Virus record (IMG/VR): IMGVR_UViG_2778261164_000001
Location: 20,803-84,802 of that record
Reading direction: 5' to 3' (one strand)
DNA length: 64,000 nucleotides
Source of the DNA: a virus
Taxonomy: Duplodnaviria; Heunggongvirae; Uroviricota; Caudoviricetes
How positions within the stretch are numbered: the first letter of the stretch is position 1; each line of letters opens with the position of its first letter. The notes under the pieces were generated by a model. It ran no database searches and was not told where the DNA came from. It saw nothing but the letters and a program-made list of their open reading frames with translations. A program made the position numbers and the translations under genes. Below are positions 14,857-54,751 of the stretch, in pieces.

Positions 14857-16119
14857 ATGAGCACTTCAGCACAAAACCAATCAATCGAAAATGTATCTAT
14901 TCCTGATGTCCTGAATGCCGGTATTCCGGCCATTATCCAGAACATCCGGGCCGCGCAACGCCGCGTTAGTTGTGATGACCTCACAGCACGTTTTTTTGAT
15001 AATGCGGTTCAGTCAGCGGAGATGCTTCACGCACAGCTTATTGATGTTTATAACGCAGAAGCTGATAGCCATAACTCCCTGGTAGATGCAGCTGAAAATA
15101 TGCAGTTGGATCTCGGTCTGAAGGGTAAAGAAATTGAAGAGCTTCAGCTGGAAATTGAACATTTGAAACGCCAGCAACAGGACGCGATCGAAGATGCGAC
15201 GCATGACGCCAACCAGCGTGCTGATAATGCCGAACGTATAAGCATTGAGCTGGAAACAAAACTCAATGAAATGACCGCGATGGTTGTGCTGCGGAACTCA
15301 CAGATTTCAACTCTAAAATCTCAATATAAAGAGATCATGAAACTTGATCCTTTTAACCTTGAGAAACGCTATAACAAAGCTAAAAGCGAGCGACAGGAAC
15401 TGCGTAAGCAGGTCGCCGACCTTAACCAACAGCTCAAAAAAACTATTAAAGATGCAAGCGAGGCGCGCGTGGCATTTGCTAATAAAAAAGCAGAGGTTAC
15501 CGCGCTGGTTAATGAGAATGCCAAATTTGCGACGCTCAAGAAGGAAATGTATGGCATTACTGAGCGCCGTTTCCCTGCAAGCAAACTTCATCCGACGTTA
15601 GGGCAAATCTCCTTCTTCCCGCGCCTCCTGGCTTATGGGATCTCATCGCCTAAAGAGTTCAATAACGAGCGTCCTTATATCGTTTCTAAGCTGGACTTTG
15701 CTTATCAGTTCTGCTGCGACATGGGCTATGCCATTGATATCCGAATCAACGAATGGTTGATGCCAAACTTCCAGCCGTTGGCAATTTTCCGCGAGTTCCA
15801 GCCGGAAGGTTGGGTAGAGTTCTTCCATGAATTGATCTGTAAAGAAATGGAAAGCCGCCGCCCGGAATTGGTCCGTCGAGTTGAGTGGGCGCAAGAGGTT
15901 ATGTTGGCAGATGCAGAGCTGCCGTTCGAACCGGAATTCATTGATGATCTGGCAACTAAAGGGTTGCATACCCTGTTTGATGTGGTTACCCGCCGTCATG
16001 AGCAGTTGGTTGTCGAATTGGGTTTAGAGAAAACAGCGGCAAGAAGACTTCTTGATGTTTGCTATGCACGTAGCGATGCATGGGAAAAAGAGAACGGCGG
16101 CACTATTTACGTTCGCTGA
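14857..16119 (+). CDS. hypothetical protein with N-terminal coiled coil
   Basis: 420 aa; residues about 60-230 are heptad-rich (Glu/Leu/Lys/Gln); distinct C-terminal globular region. Confidence 0.55.
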   Translation: MSTSAQNQSIENVSIPDVLNAGIPAIIQNIRAAQRRVSCDDLTARFFDNAVQSAEMLHAQLIDVYNAEADSHNSLVDAAENMQLDLGLKGKEIEELQLEIEHLKRQQQDAIEDATHDANQRADNAERISIELETKLNEMTAMVVLRNSQISTLKSQYKEIMKLDPFNLEKRYNKAKSERQELRKQVADLNQQLKKTIKDASEARVAFANKKAEVTALVNENAKFATLKKEMYGITERRFPASKLHPTLGQISFFPRLLAYGISSPKEFNNERPYIVSKLDFAYQFCCDMGYAIDIRINEWLMPNFQPLAIFREFQPEGWVEFFHELICKEMESRRPELVRRVEWAQEVMLADAELPFEPEFIDDLATKGLHTLFDVVTRRHEQLVVELGLEKTAARRLLDVCYARSDAWEKENGGTIYVR

Positions 16120-20632: not shown

Positions 20633-21148
20633 ATGGCGTTAACACACCGCGAACTCTGTCAGATTGCGTATAAGTTCCTTAAGCGCAACGGGTTCAAGGT
20701 TTGTTTTCATGACCGCTTTATAGCTGTAACCAGTACCGGAGAACAGCCAGATGCTATGGGATTCAGAAATTCAGCATCATGCCTGATAGAGGCGAAGTGT
20801 TCTCGTGCTGACTTGTTGGCAGATAGAAAAAAGCGTTTTCGTAAAAATCCATCTCTTGGAATGGGCGACTGGCGATTCTTTATTAGTGAGCCGGGAATTA
20901 TTTCAGTTGAGGATTTACCACCTGGCTGGGGATTACTTCACGTTGTTAACGGAAGAGTACGGAAAGTACATGGGTGGCCCAAGGGTAATTGCTGTTGGGG
21001 TAATCCTGACGATAAGCCATTTACTGGAAATAAGCAGGTTGAATGCGATTACATGTTATCTGCATTAAGGCGCATGGAGTTGAGAGGGCACCTTAATGAA
21101 ATATATGACGGTGTAATTGTTAATAAGAAAGAAGGAAACGCGGCATGA
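20633..21148 (+). CDS. hypothetical protein
   Basis: ATG at 20633 with AAAGGAGAG RBS (track ORF 20561 trimmed); 171 aa. Confidence 0.5.
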   Translation: MALTHRELCQIAYKFLKRNGFKVCFHDRFIAVTSTGEQPDAMGFRNSASCLIEAKCSRADLLADRKKRFRKNPSLGMGDWRFFISEPGIISVEDLPPGWGLLHVVNGRVRKVHGWPKGNCCWGNPDDKPFTGNKQVECDYMLSALRRMELRGHLNEIYDGVIVNKKEGNAA

Positions 21149-25476: not shown

Positions 25477-26061
25477 TCAAAATCCCCTGTTATCGTTTTG
25501 CATTTCTCTAATCCGGTTCAGAACTACTTCGTGCTGGACTTGGATAGCGGCTTTTTCGTTTTCAAGCCGGGCAATAGACATCTCTAATTCTTTGCTGTAC
25601 CAGGCGAGCTGGGCCAGGTTCATCCGGTTGTGGTCGAGAGTTGGAGACACTTCGACGCGATCCCTTTCTTCCTGCTTTAATGAGAAGAGATTCATCTCAT
25701 CCCTTGAGGAAAATTCAGCAACAATTTCTTGTTGATGATCCGGTCGCTGCGGCATCCTCGCCAGTATAAATGGCGGTTCTTTTGAAAACATGAATGACGG
25801 TTTAGACCGTGTTTTGACCCATCTAGCTTGCTGTCTTTCGGCAAGTTCACAGGCTTCATCATAGTTATCTACAAAACCAAGCACGGATGGACGGTCCCAC
25901 GCGCCACCATTCAGACAATAAACAAGAATTTTCCCGTCAGGTTCTGTAACTCCATAGGGATGGTCCCACCAGGCGTCCAGCTGGGCTTTGGAGCGTTTCT
26001 CGTTAGGAGTGCAGTCAAAATTTTTGGGCAATGCAGGATCGAGAGGAATGCGGGCAGGCAT
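25477..26061 (-). CDS. hypothetical protein, divergent from humD next to a LexA box
   Basis: 194-aa ORF starting about 135 nt from the SOS box; no motif recognised. Confidence 0.5.
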   Translation of the reverse strand: MPARIPLDPALPKNFDCTPNEKRSKAQLDAWWDHPYGVTEPDGKILVYCLNGGAWDRPSVLGFVDNYDEACELAERQQARWVKTRSKPSFMFSKEPPFILARMPQRPDHQQEIVAEFSSRDEMNLFSLKQEERDRVEVSPTLDHNRMNLAQLAWYSKELEMSIARLENEKAAIQVQHEVVLNRIREMQNDNRGF

Positions 26062-48562: not shown

Positions 48563-49106
48563 GCCCCGTCAGGCAAAGCTGGCGTTCTTCTTCACGGCGA
48601 ATCTTTAACCCGGGCAGGGGGACGCCGTTACTGTTCACAAAATCAGGGAGATGGTTACACATATTCACCCATTCCCCTTTCTGCGCCCACTTGTGGATGG
48701 ACGTTTCGACTCGCATGCCTCGCGCTTTGCTGTAGTAGGTCCGTAAACTATTGCATCCCATATTGAATGCCGCGCTTGTCATTGCGCTGAAGGCATTATC
48801 GGGCATGTCTTTGCCCCGGAAGTGCTGGTTAATACAGCGTTCAGCGATCAGGATATTCTTTTCCCAATCAGCGGCGATTTGCTGGTCGGTTTTTCGCGCG
48901 CCTGGCGTTACCCCGTGTGTATTACCAATCCCGTCAGTCCATACACCCGCCGGGCACTTGTATGGATCACGTCGGCAACCTTCAGCGTTTCCGATAAGCT
49001 CAAGCCCCGCCTGGTTGGTTCGCACATTGCCATTACCCATCACGATGGTAATCATCATCGCGATAGCGCAAATTGCACCGCCTCCTGCGGCTGTTTTTCC
49101 CTTCAT
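48549..49106 (-). CDS. lyz: SAR endolysin (T4-lysozyme-like muramidase)
   Basis: 185 aa from the internal ATG: MKGKTAAGGGAICAIAMMITIVMGNGNV... (signal-arrest-release segment) then catalytic region with ...GIGNTHG... Confidence 0.9.
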   Translation of the reverse strand: MKGKTAAGGGAICAIAMMITIVMGNGNVRTNQAGLELIGNAEGCRRDPYKCPAGVWTDGIGNTHGVTPGARKTDQQIAADWEKNILIAERCINQHFRGKDMPDNAFSAMTSAAFNMGCNSLRTYYSKARGMRVETSIHKWAQKGEWVNMCNHLPDFVNSNGVPLPGLKIRREEERQLCLTGLVNE

Positions 49107-49239
49107 AAAGACCTCATAAGCGAATTTTTTACGCTCCAGGACAAACACCCATTCACAGCCAATACCGACTGACTCGATCCCTTTAGAAGGCACAGGATAA
49201 TGCAAATCACTTGTTAGCTACGTTTCAAAGATATACATT

Positions 49240-49256
49240 ATTGCTCTAATTAATTT
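49240..49256. promoter_or_regulatory. C1 operator upstream of ssb
   Basis: ATTGCTCTAATTAATTT. Confidence 0.6.
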
Positions 49257-49275
49257 ATTTTATTAGGTAAGATAA

Positions 49276-49764
49276 GTGGCACAACGCGGTGTAAACAAAG
49301 TCATCCTGATTGGTACCCTGGGGCAAGACCCGGAGATCAGGTATATACCAAATGGCGGAGCGGTCGGAAGACTTAGCATCGCAACGAATGAATCATGGCG
49401 CGACAAGCAAACGGGCCAACAGAAAGAGCAAACAGAATGGCATAAAGTCGTTTTGTTCGGAAAACTTGCTGAAATTGCGAGTGAGTATTTACGAAAAGGT
49501 TCTCAGGTCTACATCGAAGGGAAACTTAAAACCCGTAAGTGGACAGATGACGCCGGTGTAGAACGTTACACGACGGAAATTATCGTCAGCCAGGGCGGCA
49601 CCATGCAAATGATCGGCGCTCGCCGTGACGATTCACAGTCCTCAAATGGCTGGGGGCAATCAAACCAACCTCAAAACCACCAGCAATACAGTGGTGGCGG
49701 TAAACCTCAGAGCAACGCCAATAACGAACCTCCAATGGACTTTGACGACGATATTCCGTTTTGA
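49276..49764 (+). CDS. ssb: single-stranded DNA-binding protein
   Basis: Close to E. coli SSB throughout the OB fold ([17 protein letters not shown]...); Gly/Gln-rich linker; acidic tail DFDDDIPF. Confidence 0.95.
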
Positions 49765-49961
49765 ATGTGTAAAAAACGACTGAAAGAAAAGCGGTGGTCC
49801 AGACGCCGACAAAAGCACGAACTCGCAAACAAACGCCAAAGTTGGCAATGGCACGCGCTTTTAACGAATAGAACACCCCGAGATATTGCTTTCGCTGGTG
49901 GGAAAACATTCCTGACCCACCTGAAGGCGCAATACATCAGGTTTTAAGCAGAGGAAAGACT

Positions 49962-50639
49962 ATGAATAACATGACAACGAAAGAGCTTTTGACGGTACTT
50001 CCAAAATACAAAAGCCATAAAACAGTTCGTGCCTCAAAAATCAAAGATATCGAAATTATCGCCCTAATGGATGTGGTCCTTTTTTGCAACATCGAAGTCG
50101 TTGAGCCAGAAGGGGTAAAAGTCCATGTTGATAAAATGTTTTTGCAAAAACACCGACCAGAAATTGGCGGATATCTGGTCGCTTATGAGGACGGATCTCT
50201 GTCCTATTCACCAGAAAAAACATTTGAAGAAGGCTTTAGTCGGACTAACGACTTCTTCGAAAATGGGGTATCGCTCAGTATTGAAGGTCACAATGGGGTG
50301 ACATTCATTACAGCCAGGGACGTAACTATTGCTGCCAGTGGCATCATTACCACACAAGAAGAAATCGACCTTGAAGCAGCCGACTTTTCTGACGCGCTGA
50401 TGTGGCTGAAGGATGGCAAGAAAGTTGCTCGACGCGGGTGGAACGGCGAAAACCAATTCTGCTGGCTGGTTCCTGAAGGACAGTACCCGGCACGAATGGA
50501 AGCCATTAAGGGATATTTCCCCGGCGACCTCGTTCCGTATGGTGCTTATTTCGCCTTAAAAAATGCACAAGGTGTAGTTGTTCCGTGGGTTCCTTCTGTA
50601 GGCGACTTACTGGCATGTGACTGGTTTGTAGTGGAGTGA
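49962..50639 (+). CDS. two-domain protein with C-terminal DUF2829 (Tad2-like) domain
   Basis: C-terminal ...FSDALMWLKDGKKVARRGWNGENQFCWL...PWVPSVGDLLACDWFVV fits the DUF2829 pattern (GWNG ... PW.PS..DLLA.DW); N-terminal roughly 135 aa unassigned. Confidence 0.6.
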   Translation: MNNMTTKELLTVLPKYKSHKTVRASKIKDIEIIALMDVVLFCNIEVVEPEGVKVHVDKMFLQKHRPEIGGYLVAYEDGSLSYSPEKTFEEGFSRTNDFFENGVSLSIEGHNGVTFITARDVTIAASGIITTQEEIDLEAADFSDALMWLKDGKKVARRGWNGENQFCWLVPEGQYPARMEAIKGYFPGDLVPYGAYFALKNAQGVVVPWVPSVGDLLACDWFVVE

Positions 50640-50645
50640 TTTAAC

Positions 50646-51434
50646 GTGGAAAATACTAAAGCAATTCAATACCGCCTGCGTAATGGTCAGAGTGTCGAAG
50701 TGACCATCAATAATGATGGTGTGCCTGGCGAAAAGGTTTCGATCTCTGATCTGGCTATCGAAAAAACCATCATGTGCCACCTTGGCTTTACTGAAGAAGT
50801 GAGCAAAAAGCATGGTGTAGCTATCTGGCGCACAATGGATACTGGCATGCGCAGATTCATTACTGCTCGTACCCCTGGTATGACCATGATGGACCTCATG
50901 CAGATTGCGCCGCTGTTTGAGTGTGAACCTTTGGATGTATTCAGCAATCCAGCTATCTGCCAGCAGTTATATGGTGAGATGAAACTCGCGGTTACCCCCA
51001 TTGTGCTGCATGAAGGATCGCTTGCTGGCGTGTGGAAAGTAGAGCGTATTTCAAGTTACATGCCCTTCCATTTCCACGTCAACGGCATAATCACTGGTGA
51101 AAACCAACCTGTTTCCGTTACAAAGTCAGACCTCAAGCGCGCAATTCTTGAAGCAAGTTGTCGAGTTATCGGCCTGGGCAAACAGTCTTATGTTTCCTTC
51201 CCGGCTGGCCCTGAAGGCCCGGCAGAAATTCTGATTATGGATGCCGATCTGCTCTGGCAAATACAGTTTCTGATTGGCAAAAGCATCATCCGCGCTGAAG
51301 AACTCGATCAGTACATTACCTGCACGATGACGGATGAAGTCAAAAGTGTGGCTATAGCCAATGCCCGGAACCTATGTCGTGCTGCATTAACAGAACTGCA
51401 AGAAAACACCACGGAAGAAGTGGAAAGCGATTAA
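50646..51434 (+). CDS. hypothetical protein
   Basis: 262 aa; GTG start 6 nt after the upstream stop. Confidence 0.5.
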   Translation: MENTKAIQYRLRNGQSVEVTINNDGVPGEKVSISDLAIEKTIMCHLGFTEEVSKKHGVAIWRTMDTGMRRFITARTPGMTMMDLMQIAPLFECEPLDVFSNPAICQQLYGEMKLAVTPIVLHEGSLAGVWKVERISSYMPFHFHVNGIITGENQPVSVTKSDLKRAILEASCRVIGLGKQSYVSFPAGPEGPAEILIMDADLLWQIQFLIGKSIIRAEELDQYITCTMTDEVKSVAIANARNLCRAALTELQENTTEEVESD

Positions 51435-51437
51435 AAA

Positions 51438-51463
51438 AATCCCGCCAATCGGCGGGATTTCTT
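51438..51463. terminator. bidirectional hairpin terminator
   Basis: AAATCCCGCC-AAT-CGGCGGGATTT between convergent genes. Confidence 0.5.
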
Positions 51464-51774
51464 CAATATACGATCTGGTCTACATGATCACCAAAATCAT
51501 CGTCGTCGTCGTCCTCATCGCCACCATCTACTGCTGGCCAATCAACAAACCAGCCAGCGTAAAGATGCAGCGTTCGGAGAACATCACTTGCGGGAGCATC
51601 AAGGGTGTTAACGAATCCCATATAGCTATTGGGATTTGCCCCAGCTATGGCTTCAGCGATCATGTCCTCGGTAATGTCACCGGAGATAATGCTTAAACGC
51701 CCGGAAACTTCTTCATTATCATCAAATTCGATAATGGCATCTCCGCCTAATGGCGCTGCGATTTTAATCTGCAT
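51463..51774 (-). CDS. hypothetical acidic protein (last gene of the dar operon)
   Basis: 103 aa; poly-Asp tract DGGDEDDDDDDFGDH; overlaps the ddrB stop. Confidence 0.45.
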   Translation of the reverse strand: MQIKIAAPLGGDAIIEFDDNEEVSGRLSIISGDITEDMIAEAIAGANPNSYMGFVNTLDAPASDVLRTLHLYAGWFVDWPAVDGGDEDDDDDDFGDHVDQIVY

Positions 51775-54751
51775 TATTTAGCTCCTTTGCCACACCTAAT
51801 AACAGTTCCAGCAATCCGTCACCATTCATCAGTGATGCGGCAGCGGCCTCTTTGTCATGATACAACTGAAGAGCCATAGAGAATACTTCCGTTGCTGACG
51901 TTTTGGAAATAGTCGGTGATTTCTGCCGAATTTTCCCGGTGTTACTTACTGAGGCTGGCGGGTATACCTTCGCCATATAAATATTACTCAATCGAGATCT
52001 GAAGCACCATTCAGGCTTGCCACGCCCACCGATATTAACGAAAGATGGCTTATCCCCTTCAACATTGGCCTTCAGGAATGACCGGGCTTTCTCTAACAAA
52101 CCAGGGTTACTGTACTCAAGATGATGACCCAGCTCGTGCCACAGTGCACTTGCATTTTCATCGTTCAAATTGACAGCAACAACACCATTAAGATTTGCAT
52201 ATGCCCTTCCCTGGTGGTGAACCACCTTTGATAAGGTCGAAATTTTACCGCCGGTCAGGCGATAAATATCAGCAAGTTCCTTGCGCAGGTCTATCCCACC
52301 ATTCTGTCCAGCGCGGGCTTCTTCCACTTCTTCCGTGATAAAAGAGTCGGCCCACTCAAGAGCTTTTTCTTCAGATACGGATGAGTTTGCGATCGCACTG
52401 TTCATGGCAGATAACACTTTCTCGTGGACCGAACCCATACTTCGCTGATTCATTTGCCAGCGTGTCTGCGGGTTATATGAGAATCGCTTAAGTAGTTGGT
52501 CAAGCTGCTCAAGTTCTTCTTCGCTGACATACTTTTTAGCCTCACCAATAATGCCGGGGAGAATATTGCCGTTAGGATTAAACGCTCGCGAAAGGAAGAG
52601 TTTCAGCGCCCCCATGCCCTCCGATGCTTCAATATCACCAATAACACGGTTAACAATGGCCGCACTCTTCGGATTAGCATCCGCCAACGCTCTGGCTACG
52701 ATTTGCAGTGACGATACGACCTCACGCTGCATATCAGTCCTGATCTCATCAATAAACTCTGGCGTTATGCCGTGCTCTTTAAGGATATCCCTGCCTTCCG
52801 CCGTTACCCCATCGATATCACCGACATGTTTATTAACCTGACTTTGCAATGCCTTAAATGCCTTCAGAATTCCACGGGCATCATCAGCTTTACTAACGGC
52901 CTTCCTGAATGCTGGCAAGAAGTCAGAGTTAACCTCATTTTGTTGATCGGCCCACTGAATGGAGGCTTCTTTCATCTCGTCCAGAGTCAGATCACCCAAC
53001 GCGGTATGGTCTGTGAATATGAGCGACAACCTCTGAACCATTTCTGCCAATGGTGATGCCGTATGCGCCGCGCTAAGGAATGCTTTCACCCTGGTTGGGC
53101 GAATGGAAAACCAGTCAATAGCTGGTGGCATATCTCCGTTTTTTATCGCCTGCGCTATCTCGTCAAAGCCATCGCGCCCAAGGGAGGATGCGTGATTTAA
53201 CAAGCCGCGAAGTAACGAATTGCTGATACCGAATAATCGGCACCATTTTTTCACGTCGGCAACAGGCATTCGAACAAAATGCGCAAGCACTTGAACAAGC
53301 TGTTCATCCTGGGGATCTGTACGGGAAAGCAGCCTGATCAGATGAATAATGTCTTTGGTGCCGGATGCCCGATGCAATAGCAAACTGGTATATGGAGCAA
53401 CGCCGTTGTAACTACCGCCGGAAACGGACTCGAAAAGACCGCCGGATATCCCTTGCATGCCTTCGTTTTCCAGTTCCTGAGACACCTGGCGAAGGATATC
53501 CTGTAACGACACATCACCACCGCCAAACATATCCCCCAGCGCCTGGCCCTGGTGCTGTAACTCATCATTGATACGTTGAGCCATCAATTTAAAGGCGGTG
53601 GCCATACGCTTCGCGCTACGGTTATTCGCGACGATGAACAACGCGAGAGCTTTCACTTCCGGGGCTGTTTCGCTGAACATATCCCCCTGAGCAATAACAT
53701 CGTTAATATGTTGGCCTGACTCCTTCGATTGCCTTACCAGGTCTACCGCATCTTTCAATGCCGCCAGCGCCTTTTTATCGAGGCTATCCGCTGTTTCAAT
53801 ACCATCAACGATAGTTGTCACAGCCTGCTTGTGCGCTTCTCCTGATAAAGCCTGCATCTGGACAAAATCATTGGCTGCCGCATTAAGCGCCGTCAGAACA
53901 TTACGCATATCCGGATCAGGTTCTTCTGCAACCATTCTTACCAGGCGCGCATCCTTATATGCCTTGGCAAAGATCGCGTTTTGTATACGGTCAACAAGTT
54001 GTCGTGTTGGTCGCCCATCTTCCGTTACAAGGCCAGCAGCCTGTGTGGCACCAACTTGCGTCATGAATCCGCGAATAAACGCGTCATTACTGCGGCTAAG
54101 CAGATCTCCGCTTTCTGATGGGTTAAACAGCGCCATCATCGCCGGAGTTATGCTGTCGGCATCAACAAAAGCCTTTTCACTGGCTGCCATTTCCTGGAGA
54201 TCAGAAATATTTGAGTCCTTGGCAAACTGAACACGGTCAACCTTCGTTAACCGGCGGCGCACCAGTACCGGAGCCGTCATTGATTCAACCTTTTCAGGTC
54301 GTATGCCGAATTCGGTCGCATGTTCAATCAGGTACTCACGATACCGATCCGCATTGCCGTCCTGATAGGCTTTGATGATCCCCATGGTCCGTCCATTACC
54401 TGACTCAACGGCATTGTCCTCACCAATTATCGGCGCGCCATGGCTGGATAAACCGGAATCGGTAAGCTGAGCAGGCCGCAAATCCTTGGATATCTGGTTG
54501 ACCTGAAGAAGGCTGGATGCGCGGGTCCGGTCGCGCGGCTGAAGTTCCTGGGGATAGTCCGGATTAATTTTCCCGTCCAGAGTATTGGATACCAAAAGAG
54601 CTGAGGCATCGACGATATCAAACGCTGTTTTTACCTCGTCTCCCTTCGCTGTCACCACATACGAAACCCGCCCGTAATCGGGCAGGTTTTTTAGCAGCTC
54701 GATCAGCGTTTCTATGCTGGTGGCCATCACCACCTGATCGCTTAAGCTCAT
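51764..54751 (-). CDS. ddrB: large Dar-system virion protein
   Basis: 995-aa ORF directly downstream of the ddrA/darA ORFs; positional and size assignment. Confidence 0.65.
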   Translation of the reverse strand: MSLSDQVVMATSIETLIELLKNLPDYGRVSYVVTAKGDEVKTAFDIVDASALLVSNTLDGKINPDYPQELQPRDRTRASSLLQVNQISKDLRPAQLTDSGLSSHGAPIIGEDNAVESGNGRTMGIIKAYQDGNADRYREYLIEHATEFGIRPEKVESMTAPVLVRRRLTKVDRVQFAKDSNISDLQEMAASEKAFVDADSITPAMMALFNPSESGDLLSRSNDAFIRGFMTQVGATQAAGLVTEDGRPTRQLVDRIQNAIFAKAYKDARLVRMVAEEPDPDMRNVLTALNAAANDFVQMQALSGEAHKQAVTTIVDGIETADSLDKKALAALKDAVDLVRQSKESGQHINDVIAQGDMFSETAPEVKALALFIVANNRSAKRMATAFKLMAQRINDELQHQGQALGDMFGGGDVSLQDILRQVSQELENEGMQGISGGLFESVSGGSYNGVAPYTSLLLHRASGTKDIIHLIRLLSRTDPQDEQLVQVLAHFVRMPVADVKKWCRLFGISNSLLRGLLNHASSLGRDGFDEIAQAIKNGDMPPAIDWFSIRPTRVKAFLSAAHTASPLAEMVQRLSLIFTDHTALGDLTLDEMKEASIQWADQQNEVNSDFLPAFRKAVSKADDARGILKAFKALQSQVNKHVGDIDGVTAEGRDILKEHGITPEFIDEIRTDMQREVVSSLQIVARALADANPKSAAIVNRVIGDIEASEGMGALKLFLSRAFNPNGNILPGIIGEAKKYVSEEELEQLDQLLKRFSYNPQTRWQMNQRSMGSVHEKVLSAMNSAIANSSVSEEKALEWADSFITEEVEEARAGQNGGIDLRKELADIYRLTGGKISTLSKVVHHQGRAYANLNGVVAVNLNDENASALWHELGHHLEYSNPGLLEKARSFLKANVEGDKPSFVNIGGRGKPEWCFRSRLSNIYMAKVYPPASVSNTGKIRQKSPTISKTSATEVFSMALQLYHDKEAAAASLMNGDGLLELLLGVAKELNNAD

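Follow-up and report, generated by a model that had tools for sequence, protein, structure and literature searches.

The window, which is the whole 64,000-nucleotide stretch analysed here (positions 20,803 to 84,802 of IMG/VR record IMGVR_UViG_2778261164_000001), has a backbone 97-99% identical to those of phages P1 and SJ46. On its plus strand lies an ORF of 225 codons that opens with an ATG behind a ribosome-binding site (GAGGA, 49951-49955) and closes with a TGA stop codon at 50637-50639. As the initial annotation had stated, the ORF adjoins ssb in a P1-like element: ssb lies upstream on the same strand at a distance of 197 bp, and the two genes would share an operon. The GTG start codon of the downstream gene isaA follows 6 nt past the ORF stop, and a GGAG sits in the last codons of the ORF. 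Given this short gap and the GGAG within the end of the ORF, translation of isaA is probably coupled to that of the ORF. The locus comprises the following features.

49240-49256, plus strand: C1 repressor operator (Ossb/Op21), ATTGCTCTAATTAATTT, overlapping the ssb promoters
49276-49764, plus strand: ssb (PF00436, E=7e-40; 97-98% nucleotide identity to P1/SJ46 ssb)
49765-49961, plus strand: spacer between ssb and the ORF, carrying an in-frame TAG (49869-49871) and the ribosome-binding site
49962-50639, plus strand: 225-aa ORF made up of OB module, linker and Tad2 domain (PHROG 872, full-length, E=6.8e-60)
49962-50249, plus strand: OB-fold module, aa 1-96, homologous to the OB domain of phage L Dec; family without a Pfam model
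50250-50369, plus strand: beta-rich linker, aa 97-136, of low confidence in the monomer model
50370-50636, plus strand: Tad2-like (DUF2829) sponge domain, aa 137-225, ModTad2-like
50646-51434, plus strand: isaA, 262 aa (phrog_2326, E=5.6e-151)

Searches against NCBIfam profiles returned no match for the ORF, isaA or hxr, and isaA was likewise without a match in Pfam. Hxr, a 103-aa protein encoded at 51463-51774 on the minus strand, carries a strongly acidic tail, GGDEDDDDDDFGD; the P1 annotation lists it as a possible Xre-like repressor, and it might instead be, for example, a DNA mimic at the head of the dar operon.

The corresponding gene models of SJ46 (gp048, 281 aa) and P1 (isaA, 320 aa) begin at a GTG 30 nt past ssb. 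Their N-terminal extension corresponds to window positions 49794-49871 (plus strand), where it is broken by the in-frame TAG, and the 225-aa product is therefore the relevant one. PGAP, too, calls a 225-aa product, whose cluster has 453 members. The longer P1 IsaA and SJ46 gp048 models are probably annotation artefacts, and the true start of P1 IsaA is probably the ATG equivalent to 49962.

The P1 genome (NC_005856) aligns to window positions 49200-49965 and 50650-51434, and the ORF is exactly absent from it: bases 49966-50649 form a cassette of 684 bp where the P1 reference has 6 bp. Consequently, the ribosome-binding site and ATG serving the Tad2 gene in the window are those used by isaA in P1. 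IS1 and isaB, which P1 carries between isaA and hxr (positions 4557-6272), are absent from the window (51434-51465). At the same site downstream of ssb, P7 carries the nmpC porin moron, and the P1-like phage-plasmid RCS47 (FO818745) has the same OB-Tad2 gene in two parts, 15495-15794 and 25583-25813, which lie about 10 kb apart and are annotated as 'part 1' and 'part 2' with inverted repeats at the junctions; the RCS47 gene is interrupted by a transposon insertion of that size. D6 has a shorter Tad2 protein, positioned after dUTPase. As P1, the window, P7, RCS47 and D6 differ in what they carry, the site 3' of ssb is a cargo hotspot, and it adjoins the hxr-ddrB-ddrA-darA anti-restriction operon (dar). 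At positions 1875-2824 of D6 (P0056), dUTPase lies directly upstream of the 146-aa Tad2 protein, and other E. coli elements encode a single protein of 241 aa in which dUTPase is fused to Tad2.

The ORF was found in 229 PLSDB plasmids, compared with 500 that have a P1-type ssb. This agrees with a DefenseFinder survey of about 1,600 P1/D6 phage-plasmids, where 'Tad2 AcrIIA7 (anti-Thoeris)' was reported for 56% of the P1-like and 93% of the D6-like elements (bioRxiv 10.1101/2025.09.12.675607). The ORF is thus an accessory gene cassette of P1-like phage-plasmids with an arms-race character. NCBI/RefSeq names its product 'DUF2829 domain-containing protein' and UniRef 'Thoeris anti-defense Tad2 family protein'; the Tad2 call itself is accordingly not new, having been made by routine annotation and in the published population survey.

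We examined the surroundings of the ORF for signals governing its expression. The C1 operator upstream of ssb reads as intact in the window; its position was carried over from the P1 annotation (P1 positions 3041-3057) through the alignment of 49200-49965 with P1 3001-3766, which is 98.96% identical. The spacer between ssb and the ORF has no terminator-like site on the plus strand, only terminator-like hairpins on the minus strand. It also lacks a match to a P1 late-promoter pattern, a weak negative as the pattern was built from a single example, LPlyz. Across the window this pattern matches only at 49194-49212 (minus strand), 45475 (plus strand) and 9185 (minus strand); one of these matches is LPlyz itself and another lies upstream of the portal gene. 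A sigma-70 consensus scan of 49100-51800 returned zero promoters and is uninformative, since even the annotated ssb promoters escaped detection. Taking the timing from the P1 annotation, we infer that the C1 operator is the control point of the transcription unit holding the ORF, and that the ORF is co-transcribed with ssb early, under C1, and repressed in the plasmid state. The homolog in SopranoGao likewise lies in an early region, beside divergent regulators.

The C-terminal part of the ORF had been read as a DUF2829 domain of about 85 residues, and this reading is borne out by a significant profile match (PF11195, 80 bits against a cutoff of 25, E=1.9e-22, profile positions 2-73 of 73). 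The predicted structure likewise has the Tad2 fold, with an N-terminal helix, an antiparallel sheet and a beta2-beta3 insertion. ModTad2 is the top PDB match both by sequence (49% identity) and by fold, and a fold search of BFVD returned Tad2-like matches only. In SPO1 Tad2, gcADPR is contacted by W25, N26, W73, S76 and D79 (bioRxiv 10.1101/2023.05.01.538930), which align with W160, N161, W209, S212 and D215 of the ORF. In HgmTad2, the substitutions W21A/N22A and S90A/T92A/D93A abolished gcADPR binding (bioRxiv 10.1101/2023.11.15.567273); here, W21/N22, S90 and D93 align with W160/N161, S212 and D215. W160, W209, S212 and D215 are invariant in 39 of 39 homologs, and N161 is replaced by lysine in nine of them. 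The threonine (SPO1 T78, HgmTad2 T92) is G214 in the ORF, and peripheral adenine and water contacts differ as well, SPO1 D67 and H71 being replaced by Q203 and V207. In length, the beta2-beta3 insertion (aa ~171-198) matches that of ModTad2, with one gap in the alignment of the two. By sequence and predicted fold, the C-terminal 89 residues are thus a Tad2-family domain nearest to ModTad2 that retains the core residues for ADPR binding, and the counter-defence sponge proposed in the initial annotation stands as a candidate.

At 225 aa and with two modules, the ORF does not have the short single-domain form (about 90-100 aa) of the Tad2 family. Such a short size is typical of the family and not strictly defining, since functional fusions exist. 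ModTad2 itself (MoTad2, from a Myroides odoratus prophage; PDB 9EIB, 8V3E) is a standalone protein of 88 aa, to which the ORF adds a 136-aa N-terminal extension. It sequesters His-ADPR, the type II Thoeris signal, and leaves type I Thoeris uninhibited (bioRxiv 10.1101/2024.01.03.573942); a second pocket binds cUMP/cCMP, by which Pycsar is blocked (bioRxiv 10.1101/2025.08.24.671296). Both binding activities were demonstrated on ModTad2 alone, to which the ORF is likened by sequence and insertion length. The founding member, SPO1 Tad2 (Gp34.65; PDB 8SME-8SMG), has the fold and the pocket core in common with the ORF at lower similarity (E~1e-9); its insertion is shorter, and stacked F44 residues occlude the second pocket.

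These features also bear on a quite different role, in which the Tad2-like domain would sequester c-di-GMP or another host nucleotide unrelated to immunity, or act as an AcrIIA7-type anti-CRISPR, and so alter host physiology or CRISPR activity. We consider this highly improbable. HgmTad2 builds its dinucleotide pocket from an insertion about double the length of the one here, which is of the ModTad2 type; no mechanism was ever attached to the anti-CRISPR activity of DUF2829, which has since been reinterpreted; and the gene would be repressed in the plasmid state. Type II CRISPR-Cas is not known from E. coli and Salmonella, which we count against the anti-CRISPR version.

Upstream of the Tad2 domain, an additional N-terminal domain of about 135 aa had been noted and left unassigned. 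The extra domain is indeed present, but it can be assigned: aa 1-96 are homologous to the OB fold of phage L Dec (PDB 6E3C; profile E=1.9e-5, 30% identity over 86 aligned residues), and the two have in common the motif PE[IV]GGYL...G.L.Y...AFE..Y. Searching the PDB with this module by sequence and by fold returned only Dec and generic OB folds, on which ground its identity with Lockin (a hexamer, reported absent from model phages) or another solved sponge was rejected. The module matches no model in Pfam. The BLASTP alignment to Dec runs through aa 139 and so includes the linker, whose motif TARDVTIAASGIITT resembles the trimerising spike of Dec (TARTITL-TGAVTGS); this is a short motif similarity only (TARDVTIAASG versus TARTITLTGAV). 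In the monomer model, pLDDT is below 50 for aa 97-137, and some homologs have a helical linker or none.

Owing to the Dec-like assignment of the OB module, capsid decoration became a rival to weigh. In a Dec-type decoration protein, the OB domains would be legs on the capsid, the linker would form a trimeric spike, and the Tad2-like tip would be an adhesin, a cross-linker or another extracellular ligand-binding head. The Dec layout, an OB fold followed by a linker motif that may correspond to the spike, can be made out as a whole in the ORF; the low monomer confidence of the linker would suit a segment that acquires its fold only on trimerisation, like the C-terminal spike that Dec requires for capsid binding; and some databases name homologs 'capsid decoration protein'. 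However, dec belongs to the late genes, lying at the end of the lysis/late region, and its product ends after the spike, whereas the gene in the window would belong to the C1-controlled ssb unit, with the late-promoter match absent and outside a late or structural context. Furthermore, P1 builds virions without the ORF and has no decoration protein (PMC9024508), an argument drawn from the proteome of a phage that itself lacks the ORF. Capsid binding by Dec depends on K30 and Y49 (PMC6449081), which correspond to E31 and H55 here and fall in hypervariable columns of the OB family (139 representatives); E31 is a charge reversal of the kind that weakened binding in Dec K30D (PMC6449081).

The breadth of that family puts the resemblance to Dec into perspective. 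Searching for homologs of the first 100 aa with a word index returned fragments only, and an exhaustive profile search was used instead. It returned 4,891 representative clusters with the OB module, of which 2,439 had E<=1e-10, and most members are standalone proteins of 85-130 aa. The family has the signature PxYx[CS]HKVxAxKI ... KHxP ... GGYxVxYEDGYxSYSPxxAFExGY, which is present in the window protein. Its positions (P14, Y16, C/S18, H19, K20, V22, A24, K26, I27, K63, H64, P66, G69, G70, Y71, Y75, D77, G78, Y79, S81, S83, P84, F88, E89, G91 and Y92) are conserved in 115-137 of the 139 representatives, and the window protein retains every one of these residues apart from three exceptions, S18, S79 and F92. 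Ser79 (codon 50196-50198) replaces a near-invariant family tyrosine (133/139), and Y, S, C, H and R all occur there among P1-like alleles, which may point to relaxed constraint or a changed specificity in the P1-like lineage. Dec is without at least 12 of the signature positions and matches the family model at E=1.3e-7, compared with 1e-20 to 1e-42 for other members. Because of these missing residues, Dec is, on sequence grounds, a divergent outlier of the OB family rather than its model, which counts further against decoration.

Gene contexts of the OB family are mostly early or associated with nucleotide metabolism (SopranoGao, Dolphis, BCSR129, which has an OB-Sequestin fusion, Jess A, PCSE1 and PaBG). 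The exception is Ralstonia phage GP4, where a standalone OB gene (gp05) lies between the portal and major capsid genes, a position in keeping with decoration. The cement protein resolved in the GP4 capsid structure is another one, gp1, which has an Ig-like fold, and the equation of the OB module with the GP4 cement protein was rejected. A standalone OB representative that was also examined for context lies on a contig of 958 bp. A rare chimera (P0023), in which a tail-fibre N-terminus is joined to a truncated OB-Tad2, is the only structural association seen.

Among 86 of the best-scoring OB representatives with lengths of 135-500 aa, the Pfam-detectable partners were Tad2 (16), PF21825 (Sequestin; 16), PF13876 (Acb4; 3) and Acb2_Tad1_hairpin (1), the Tad2 count being biased by the construction of the OB profile and the other counts unbiased. 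All of these are sponges; no other Pfam partner was found among the 86, and none that is structural, contrary to what decoration would lead one to expect. With local HMMs, 138 representatives yielded 10 OB-Sequestin, 9 OB-Tad2 and 3 OB-Tad2-Sequestin proteins, 3 with Acb4 and 6 with tandem OB modules, and the OB module was invariably N-terminal in the fusions. About half of the longer OB proteins end in tails without an assigned family. Unassigned tails of at least 60 aa occur in 45 OB-bearing representatives, are nearly all singletons on clustering and never contain the spike motif.

A precedent for reading such fusions functionally comes from Sequestin, which was discovered through its fusion to Tad2 and Acb4 in a Pfam-based search and proved to be a sponge (PMC12265669). 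In the known fused sponges, Acb4-Tad2 of Pasteurella phage Pm86, Tad2-Sequestin and Sequestin-Acb4 (PMC12265669), Tad2 or its counterpart is joined to a small phage module, as Tad2 is in the ORF; the partner here is neither Acb4 nor Sequestin, but an OB fold that precedes the very sponge domains found in those fusions. Having no Pfam model, the OB module would be invisible to a Pfam-based fusion search. The largest experimental Tad2 screen, by Hadary et al., deliberately removed proteins combining a sponge with a 6E3C-like (Dec) domain from the tested set; the OB-sponge architecture had therefore been noticed before but stayed outside the published screen. A literature search combining sponge, OB-fold, Thoeris and phage, with most subscription journals outside its scope, returned no paper. 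Since its recognisable fusion partners elsewhere are only immune-signal sponges, the OB module may be an undescribed counter-defence part.

Comparison of P1-like alleles revealed how differently the segments of the protein evolve. The Tad2 core is 85-100% identical among them, the OB module 50-68% and the linker 38-95%; the linker and the beta2-beta3 insertion exchange independently of other segments, and the two halves of the protein differ in GC content (39.6% versus 51.9%). By their sequences, the alleles are mosaic, with OB module, linker and insertion exchangeable. Such divergence of the OB module on near-identical P1-like backbones is hard to square with docking onto a conserved capsid, and the invariance of the Tad2 pocket residues is a further point against decoration. 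Taking both sides together, we regard a Dec-type decoration protein as improbable; the OB module is probably not a capsid anchor, the least supported of the roles considered for it.

Fast divergence of the OB module could equally be expected if the Tad2 domain alone were anti-defence, and the OB module and linker a passive scaffold for oligomerisation, solubility or avidity. The replacement of the near-invariant Tyr79 by serine and the dispensability of the linker in some homologs point the same way, as does phage D6. The Tad2 domain of D6 orf114 (DUF2829, 146 aa) is 100% identical in protein sequence to that of the ORF, and an isaA homolog follows in both. In D6, however, the gene lies after dUTPase near cre and not after ssb, and the OB module is reduced to a 29-residue remnant; the Tad2 protein is nonetheless of working length, and it is kept in 93% of D6-like elements. 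If the module were a passive scaffold, one would not expect some 25 positions, H19, K20, K26, H64, D77, S81 and S83 among them, to be conserved in 115-137 of the 139 representatives, nor the module to occur mostly as a standalone protein of about 90 aa, and Sequestin, with the same fusion pattern, turned out to be a sponge. We therefore find a purely passive role doubtful, though less so than decoration.

The reading we favour, and think probable, is that the ORF encodes a two-module counter-defence protein: a Tad2 sponge for ADPR-type signals, made early with ssb, in which the OB module serves as a second head or as an adaptor. The Tad2 domain would oligomerise with its pockets at subunit interfaces, as in other Tad2 proteins, and would sequester TIR-made ADPR-type signals, such that the Thoeris effector is never activated. 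The favoured ligand is His-ADPR, of type II Thoeris, by nearest-neighbour extrapolation from nothing but the 49% identity to ModTad2. Because the beta2-beta3 insertion has ModTad2 length, a second pocket for cUMP/cCMP is possible. Thoeris, and possibly Pycsar, would be blocked in Enterobacteriaceae hosts. Transcription with ssb from C1-repressed promoters would supply the protein right upon infection or induction, when the sponge is needed. That Tad2 can work inside a fusion protein follows from the activity of the Acb4-Tad2 fusion, by which Thoeris and CBASS were both blocked (PMC12265669). Less certainly, the OB module of this two-module protein would act as a second head that binds or degrades signals, or else help sponges to oligomerise as an adaptor. 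Stoichiometry introduces a tension, as Tad2 needs a tetramer, and fused Tad2 proteins have been modelled as tetramers (PMC12265669), whereas the linker resembles the trimerising spike of Dec.

A bolder form of this proposal, which we put forward tentatively and as the less likely outcome, is that the Dec-like OB module represents an unrecognised counter-defence family, either a fifth sponge or a signal-degrading enzyme acting through its His/Lys/Asp/Ser/Tyr signature. The P1-like protein would then be a two-headed inhibitor, and Dec an exapted, degenerate descendant.

The value of the locus accordingly lies in its N-terminal module rather than in the Tad2 call: the module recurs in thousands of phage proteins with a sharp polar and aromatic signature and no Pfam model, in the same fusion pattern that led to the discovery of Sequestin. 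If it is active, a widespread counter-defence family would be added, Dec would be recast as a derived offshoot, and the mosaic cassette in about half of the P1-like phage-plasmids of E. coli, Salmonella and Shigella would be explained. If it is instead a capsid anchor, the ORF would encode the first decoration protein of P1-like phages, displaying a nucleotide-binding domain.

Two further observations concern the wider OB family. In P0057 and P0066, an extra Cys/His-rich domain of about 130 aa (…CIRCRKIMHVHGW…GGHIVCPGDW…) lies between the N-terminal part and the Tad2 domain; this insert and the tails of at least 60 aa are possible further partner modules. Moreover, six giant proteins of 1,781-4,559 aa (P0129, P0130, P0131, P0138, P0143 and P0147) each contain 10-28 matches to a portion of the OB profile that corresponds approximately to the GGYLVxYxDGYxSY hairpin.
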